Below are positions 34,722-35,453 of a DNA stretch of 64,000 bases, one piece after another (position 1 is the stretch's first letter; each line of letters opens with the position of its first letter). This DNA comes from Escherichia coli (GTDB taxonomy: Bacteria; Pseudomonadota; Gammaproteobacteria; Enterobacterales; Enterobacteriaceae): NCBI RefSeq assembly GCF_013122565.1, contig NZ_CP053258.1. One strand, 5' to 3'. A model generated the notes under the pieces. That model saw only the letters and a list, made by a program, of their open reading frames with translations, was not told the DNA's origin and did not search any database. Both the position numbers and the translations under genes were made by a program.

Positions 34722-35358
34722 TCTTCTGAATCACCGGGCGACAAAATATAACTGAGTTACAAATAAGTACCAGTCGAATGAGTATTGTATTAAGAATTTT
34801 TGAGTATCGCTGATACAACCAGAAAGCAATGCTAGCGCAATATTATAGGGCCAGCAATTGAGATTATTAGCAAAAGCATGTTAAGAATTAATTACCGAAT
34901 TTATATATTAATTATAGTAAGGCAATGAGCTATTTTTGATAGTAAAAATAAAACAAGTTGATTTGATATATTAAATGAACAAATTAATCTTGATGGCAGT
35001 CTGATTATTGGTGAGGTTTATAGGTCAGTTTTTTTCGCCAGCTGTTAAAGGAATAGAATAGTCGTATAAAAAAGGGTGTTCTGGAGCGTGTAAAACAACA
35101 TCTTCACCTTAATGGCGATACAGTTGGCTGAGAGTCATCAGGGGGGCAAATCACCTGCAAATAAACACGGCGCAGACTGGCGCGAGTATCGCGGATGCGT
35201 TCGAGGACAGAAGAACCGACAGGCGGATTCTTCAGCCGCTCATCGTCCATCACAAAACCTTTGATCAGGTATTCCTGAAGCCGATTGAATATTGAGCAGT
35301 AGAAAATATCTGGATTGACAGTATTACAAGGGATTGGAGAACGTCAGGAGAGGCATTT

Positions 35359-35453
35359 TGGCGGAAGATCACAGGAGTCGAACCTGCCCGGGACCGCTGG
35401 CGGCCCCAACTGGATTTGAAGTCCAGCCGCCTCACCGGAGACGACGATCTTCC
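35359..35453 (-). tRNA. selC: tRNA-Sec (selenocysteine, UCA anticodon), including 3-prime CCA
   Basis: The reverse complement gives a tRNA with the 8-bp acceptor stem and long variable arm characteristic of tRNA-Sec; recognised as selC. Confidence 0.9.

Follow-up and report, generated by a model that had tools for sequence, protein, structure and literature searches.

In EAEC 042, selC and a 21-bp repeat of its 3' end flank the phage-like element selC-A, which is followed by setC, yicL, and nlpA and then by a second island, selC-B, as set out in PMC7058095 (with Sheikh et al. 2006 and Ren et al. 2004 as cited there). According to the same paper, the selC-B, or eip, island was named for its map proximity to selC, selC-A is largely absent from selC-B-positive isolates, and the selC-A-negative/selC-B-positive configuration is reported for ST69 and others (PMC7058095). 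The content of Ren et al. 2004 (PMC415751) is taken here as it is relayed in PMC7058095 and PMC2808357. In Salmonella, a variable region bounded by selC and yicL contains rhuM (PMC3641672, PMC3680342), a gene of the selC island SPI-3 (PMC3680342), and yicL abuts the distal end of that island (PMC3641672).

Presented here is an analysis of the selC region in a 64-kb stretch of Escherichia coli DNA, referred to in its entirety as the window. The locus very probably represents the E. coli selC hotspot in its unoccupied, K-12-type form, positioned next to the published eip (selC-B) T3SS accessory island. As in EAEC 042, the selC-B gene set of eipB/C/D, eicA, eilA, and eaeX is located beyond setC, yicL, and nlpA, but the window contains neither the selC-A element nor the 21-bp selC repeat of that strain. 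The presence of selC-B together with the absence of selC-A has already been described in the literature, and is an ordinary, known configuration.

Results and Discussion

The selC gene and its attachment site

The features of the tRNA locus are as follows.

35359-35453, minus strand: selC, intact tRNA-Sec gene (ARAGORN, Rfam RF01852, identity to K-12)
35359-35382, minus strand: attachment-site core, the last 24 nt of selC (single copy; duplicated at the far end of the island in occupied strains)

The tRNA-Sec gene, with its TCA (UCA) anticodon, is the sole tRNA detected by ARAGORN in the 64-kb window. It is identical to the K-12 selC gene at all positions (95/95 nt, 100%), and its score of 83.8 bits against the Rfam covariance model RF01852 passes the curated threshold (gathering score 47). 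The gene is intact, as had been stated in a preliminary description of this DNA, and by its sequence it is predicted to be functional.

The selC-specific tyrosine integrases recombine within the 3' end of the tRNA gene. In the window, the terminal 24-mer of selC occurs as one copy when up to 3 mismatches are allowed, with 0 expected by chance. Ungapped scans of both strands of the 64 kb with the terminal 16, 20, 24, and 30 nt, allowing as many as 8 mismatches in 30 nt, revealed no second selC 3' end, and a blastn-short comparison of the whole tRNA with the window gave no additional match longer than 11 nt. A search by tblastn with two integrases from selC-adjacent islands, namely the 403-aa integrase of ATCC 25922, which is located 300 bp from selC, and the truncated E. 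albertii integrase next to selC, yielded nothing below E=2 in the window. Likewise, the island-end proteins DUF4942 and CbtA had no tblastn match there. The preliminary description had named a degenerate integrase and a duplicated selC 3' fragment as the things to look for; neither is present in the window, the latter being absent both from 34722-35358 and from the remainder of the 64 kb.

Because the 24-nt 3' end of selC is present only once, no element is integrated now, and the site is unoccupied. Specifically, there is no selC-A type island in the window, as judged by the absence of a 21-24 nt selC repeat and of extra DNA relative to K-12. The identity of the 24-nt core with the repeat found in occupied strains suggests that the site should still accept a selC-specific element.

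The spacer between selC and setC

The spacer can be divided into three parts.

34722-35118 (397 nt), no strand: AT-rich spacer upstream of setC, 32% GC, specific to the K-12-type cassette
35119-35280 (162 nt, 54 codons), minus strand: rhuM relic, a pseudogene fragment (tblastn, Pfam PF13310, PGAP in K-12)
35281-35358 (78 nt), minus strand: selC trailer, the native selC-rhuM spacer, common to other Escherichia species

Since the 5' side of the setC open reading frame ends at 34721, the spacer runs from 34722 to 35358 and is 637 bp in length, in agreement with the earlier estimate of about 640 bp. Its GC content is 38.5% overall and is uneven, at 32, 53, and 40% for 34722-35118, 35119-35280, and 35281-35358, respectively. 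An alignment to the K-12 selC-setC region, as had been proposed in the preliminary description, is collinear: positions 34600-35600 align with K-12 MG1655 as a single piece, across the selC junction, with 98.0% identity. The 637-bp spacer itself aligns end to end at ~98% identity, and the value for the longer segment from 31606 to 36000 is 97.8%. From the one-piece alignment it follows that, over this region, the window has no DNA in addition to that of the classic island-free reference.

The window thus resembles K-12 MG1655 in gene order, in its identical selC, and in its 637-bp spacer, relic included, at ~98% identity; it differs in that K-12 lacks both the eip island and a RelE/ParE insertion. 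The latter, an 840-bp insertion relative to K-12 at 10702-11541 between yicN and nepI, contains genes for a RelE/ParE-type toxin (11049-11408, minus strand) and an HTH antitoxin-like protein (10742-11065, minus strand), according to the annotation of PapRG-06-5. In addition, the first 1000 positions of the window have a GC content of 33%, and a 498-aa open reading frame occupies 77-1573 on the plus strand. The first kilobase of the window may be another accessory segment.

An alignable counterpart of the 78-nt trailer follows the 3' end of selC in E. whittamii (L111), Escherichia sp. E1V33 (L100), and E. coli SCPM-O-B-8794 (L046). The AT-rich 397 bp, on the other hand, match only K-12-type E. 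coli among 126 fetched loci, and are presumed to serve as the promoter/leader region of setC. An Rfam search of 33400-35800 at permissive thresholds returned only tRNA-Sec and a chance-level group II match (E=0.7), with no sRNA in the spacer. A scan of 34500-35750 for consensus promoters and terminators indicated no enrichment of such motifs, the sites being fewer than, or no more numerous than, those in shuffled sequence. A repeat search of 33400-35700 gave only short two-copy families. One T-rich direct repeat, with 16 of 18 nt matching (AGGTCAGTTTTTTTCGCC at 35022-35039 and AGATCAGTTTTTTCCGCC at 35519-35536, 497 bp apart), brackets selC and the rhuM relic; it probably reflects chance.

The rhuM relic

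When the 345-aa RhuM of strain AVS0756 was compared with the window by tblastn, a match was obtained at 35119-35280 on the minus strand, with 64.6% identity and E=1e-17. The 54-codon translation scores 43 bits against PF13310, for which the cut-off is 33.7, and covers profile positions 52-98 of 252 only. The relic corresponds to RhuM residues ~121-185, such that the N-terminal 120 and the C-terminal 160 codons are missing, and it has an internal deletion of 24 nt. The deletion junction can be seen in the DNA alignment. A complete RhuM open reading frame (~250 profile positions, ~345 aa) is absent, with neither the N- nor the C-terminus found in the relic. Given that so limited a portion of the profile is covered, the relic is a dead fragment and cannot encode a functional protein. 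Note that in K-12 the relic contains a TAA where the window has AAA, and that the relic in the window has no internal stop.

The equivalent stretch of K-12 is labeled "RhuM family protein, incomplete" by PGAP/RefSeq, as it is in other collinear genomes, and the relic is therefore already known. A survey of the literature on rhuM at selC and on the yicT pseudogene turned up little of relevance. Inasmuch as rhuM is a gene of SPI-3, the statement in the preliminary description that the spacer contains no island genes is not strictly true: the 54-codon relic passes the PF13310 threshold and is annotated by PGAP in K-12-type genomes. Of the description of the site as empty, the part that stands is that it is unoccupied, lacking an integrase, a repeat, and any DNA beyond that of K-12. 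It is not, however, a pristine site.

The variable segment between selC and yicL

Listed below are the features between selC and the T3SS island.

33456-35343, no strand: K-12-type allele of the selC-to-yicL segment, comprising setC, the AT-rich spacer, and the rhuM relic (homology breaks with AVS0756)
33537-34721, minus strand: setC, sugar efflux MFS transporter, 394 aa (open reading frame, TIGR00899, RefSeq annotation of collinear genomes)
32503-33426, minus strand: yicL, backbone (annotation of collinear PapRG-06-5)
31681-32499, plus strand: nlpA, backbone (annotation of collinear PapRG-06-5)
31179-31472, minus strand: yicS, backbone (annotation of collinear PapRG-06-5)

The assignment of setC is supported by a score of 645 bits with the NCBIfam model TIGR00899. 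Homology between the window and AVS0756 ends at 33455 (29 bp beyond the start codon of yicL) and restarts at 35344 (15 bp 3' of selC). Between these breakpoints AVS0756 carries another cassette of 2.3 kb, consisting of a gene for a hypothetical 165-aa protein, a degenerate copy of the selC 3' end, and a full rhuM. In Escherichia sp. E1V33, 1.5 kb separate selC from yicL, and this DNA gives no match to SetC. Taken together with the boundaries of SPI-3 in Salmonella, where yicL abuts the distal end of the island, the AVS0756 cassette and the E1V33 arrangement indicate that the interval from selC to yicL is variable, and that its K-12-type content is one allele. No SetC match was obtained in the DNA fetched from the 3' side of selC for any of the other species, and the GC content of setC and the spacer is lower than that of the genes on the other side of selC.

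In Siccibacter, Pluralibacter, Enterobacteriaceae bacterium RIT691, and Escherichia sp. E1V33, yicL and/or nlpA are found at a distance of 2-5 kb on the 3' side of selC. On account of this proximity in other genera, the genes between selC and the T3SS island are assigned to the backbone; by the comparisons above, setC does not strictly belong to it, and in the strict sense the backbone resumes at yicL.

The interval in the window is like SPI-3 in being a variable region that is bounded by selC and yicL and that contains rhuM. It differs in that rhuM is reduced to 54 codons and setC occupies the interval, whereas SPI-3 reportedly spans ~17 kb and carries mgtCB, misL, and other genes (Blanc-Potard and Groisman 1997, 1999).

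Occupancy of selC among complete E. coli genomes

The uninterrupted selC-setC arrangement is present in 2,467 of the 5,426 complete E. coli genomes (45%), and the unoccupied selC is a very common state. The remaining ~55% lack a contiguous selC-setC arrangement. In occupied genomes, the match to the window breaks at 35379-35382 on the setC side and at 35344 or 35357-35358 on the selC side. An example is provided by LR-64-1, in which island genes (DUF4942, CbtA/YeeU) are followed by a 24-nt copy of the selC 3' end, a window-like trailer, the relic, and then setC. The 24-nt terminal repeat of this strain fits recombination within the 3' end of the tRNA.

Because occupied K-12-type strains such as LR-64-1 carry the relic outside the terminal selC repeat of the island, the relic does not represent a scar left by an island of the present day, and it predates the modern islands. 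Its age is otherwise uncertain, given that its first 70 nt are nearly identical to rhuM of the present-day strain AVS0756 and are also 89-92% conserved across genera.

With respect to the window as a whole, the 12.5 kb of core genes from 39500 to 52000 (yicH-xanP-gltS-recG-spoT) display no more than 98.4% identity among the 5,424 complete E. coli genomes with a match. The best matches for the selC spacer and for the eip island are 98.7 and 98.0%, respectively. The lineage of the window appears to be without a close relative among the complete E. coli genomes compared.

rhuM at selC in other genomes

One genome per species was scanned with the 3' 30-mer of selC, which yielded 120 loci; in 108 of them the downstream sequence extends for 600 nt or more. 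Of these 108 species loci, 13 have rhuM, complete or partial, with its start 60-480 nt 3' of selC and always on the selC strand. The 13 loci span the Enterobacteriaceae, Morganellaceae, Hafniaceae, and Erwiniaceae, and the genera include Pseudescherichia, Enterobacter, Klebsiella, Kosakonia, Erwinia, Hafnia, Morganella, Providencia, Xenorhabdus, and Photorhabdus.

Within Escherichia, the first ~80 nt after selC are common to the window, E. whittamii, E1V33, and the divergent E. coli SCPM-O-B-8794. In E. whittamii and E1V33 the trailer continues to the rhuM ATG at +122 and +112, respectively, and rhuM is reduced to its first 14 codons (MSDKRLTQSPTGEF; at about 797-838 of locus L111 and about 3160-3201 of locus L100). 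Between the rhuM stub and yicL of E1V33, a 404-aa gene that weakly matches a CxxCxxCC domain is located on the opposite strand. In the window and in K-12, the trailer jumps at ~+80, across a GCTT microhomology, into rhuM codon ~121.

In AVS0756 (locus L002, 5258-6486), an intact rhuM is situated directly 3' of selC, and beyond it the 3' end of selC recurs in degenerate form (28/32 nt). The same layout is observed in the first 1.4 kb 3' of selC in Pseudescherichia vulneris (L018), with a selC 3' copy of 19/20 nt. In both, rhuM is the sole gene between selC and the partial selC copy, and no integrase is present. Bounded by these att-like repeats, rhuM in AVS0756 and P. vulneris looks like a one-gene islet. 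The window shares with that islet a rhuM sequence positioned immediately 3' of selC and reading away from it, but has a relic and no repeat where the islet has an intact rhuM and a partial selC copy.

These arrangements suggest a scheme, drawn from a handful of Escherichia loci rather than from a phylogeny, in which the Escherichia ancestor would have had selC, a spacer of ~120 nt, and rhuM. The K-12-type lineage may then have lost ~400 bp by a deletion that joined the spacer to rhuM codon ~121 at the GCTT microhomology, and the portion of rhuM after ~codon 185 would have been replaced by the setC cassette. The simplest reading is that the ancestral selC-spacer-rhuM arrangement was truncated independently in different Escherichia lineages. 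This reconstruction of three rhuM decay states in Escherichia, along with the accessory character of setC, is the only element of the present analysis that is even mildly new.

Full-length RhuM matches the PADLOC candidate defence family PDC-S05 with E=3e-173, which hints that the ancestral rhuM was a defence module at an integration hotspot; it is offered as a lead, not as a finding. A broader proposal can be formulated, namely that rhuM, beyond being stray island cargo, is a single-gene candidate phage-defence module that either took up its place immediately 3' of selC prior to the divergence of the Enterobacterales families or has been delivered repeatedly as a one-gene islet bounded by selC repeats, that this module decayed independently into at least three products, the K-12 site among them, and that setC is a later replacement cassette rather than backbone. 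As a whole this proposal is rather doubtful, and it is put forward as speculation.

The neighboring eip (selC-B) island

The components of the island are given below.

12821-31180, no strand: eip/selC-B island, 18,360 bp (borders by K-12 alignment)
13022-23863, plus strand: iatC/eaeX, 3,613 aa (annotated genomes 97-98% identical)
23915-25612, minus strand: eilA (annotated genomes; NCBIfam HilA/EilA, 949 bits)
25815-27164, minus strand: eipD, SipD-like, a SipD-family tip protein (annotated genomes)
27208-28338, minus strand: eipC, annotated as a hypothetical protein (annotated genomes)
28351-30132, minus strand: eipB, SipB-like, a SipB/YopB-family translocator (annotated genomes)
30188-30370, minus strand: small open reading frame
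30380-30877, minus strand: eicA, SicA-like chaperone, SycD/LcrH (annotated genomes; NCBIfam LcrH/SycD match)

The 18,360 bp of the island replace 48 bp of K-12 DNA between the converging 3' ends of nepI and yicS. The preliminary description had placed a T3SS-related island a few kilobases away at a non-tRNA site, and this proved accurate, with the island ending 4.2 kb from the 3' end of selC. The eip genes have 97-98% DNA identity to annotated loci and are sited beyond setC-yicL-nlpA. The 8.7-kb eip segment is present to an extent of 80% or more in approximately 703 of the 5,426 genomes. At the island borders there are no direct or inverted repeats of 9 nt or longer, no selC fragment, and no tRNA, and tblastn gave no integrase match in the window.

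The island is a mosaic with respect to GC content across 13022-30877, with iatC/eaeX at 55.5% overall (61-62% centrally) and the eilA-eip-eicA block at 37%. The yicS region beside it (31181-31866) is 86.6% identical to K-12, and the flanking genes are 97-99% identical. The divergent yicS allele may have arrived with the island.

Alternative histories of the locus

The reading implicit in the preliminary description was that of a pristine attachment site, one that never held foreign DNA and whose spacer is ordinary ancestral intergenic sequence. Such a site would have no integrase, no selC 3' repeat, and no intact island gene, as is the case here, and the spacer is the same as that in K-12. The significance of the rhuM match and its passing of the Pfam cut-off argue against it, as do the exchange of the selC-to-yicL interval, setC included, for another cassette in other E. 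coli, the failure to find SetC in the fetched loci of other species, and the low GC content of setC and the spacer relative to the genes beyond selC. A pristine site is consequently regarded as very unlikely, and much the same can be said of the notion that the relic is a scar left when the source strain recently lost a modern selC island, be it selC-A, CP4-like, or LEE. Islands at selC are indeed common, as judged by the ~55% of complete genomes without the contiguous arrangement, and in E. albertii the island that contains rhuM has a truncated integrase adjacent to selC. Site-specific excision by tyrosine recombinases, however, restores the attachment site and leaves no scar. Moreover, island-bearing strains retain the same relic outside the terminal selC repeat, K-12 and the 2,467 genomes have an identical architecture, and selC and the relic are separated by the native Escherichia trailer rather than by island DNA.

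Whether the T3SS island was ever linked to selC had been left open in the preliminary description, and the evidence is against it. In its favor, the literature refers to the eip island as a selC island, only 4.2 kb separate it from selC, setC is itself accessory, and yicS beside the island is unusually divergent from K-12 (86.6%). An initial integration at selC would require that setC-yicL-nlpA-yicS later came to separate the two by insertion or rearrangement, yet yicL and/or nlpA occur 2-5 kb 3' of selC in other genera and in E1V33, and yicL bounds SPI-3 (PMC3641672), which marks these genes as backbone. The island borders, furthermore, are devoid of a selC fragment, an integrase, and repeats of at least 9 nt, and just 48 bp were replaced between two converging gene ends. 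This history is likewise very unlikely, and no support was found in the sequence for an eip island that had ever been integrated at selC. The island would instead have arrived independently between the converging nepI and yicS ends, such that its linkage to selC may be one of map position only.

Implications

With the locus read as the K-12-type unoccupied state of the hotspot next to the eip (selC-B) island, current understanding is unchanged: the relic is in RefSeq and the layout of the island has been published. The neighboring T3SS accessory island is properly named eip/selC-B and should not be called tRNA-integrated. The K-12-type "empty" reference employed in PCRs and comparisons of selC occupancy is itself a decayed remnant, composed of a rhuM relic and an accessory setC cassette. 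As for the strain, its selC is free of a LEE, SHI-2, PAI-I, or selC-A type insertion, and it could still gain one.
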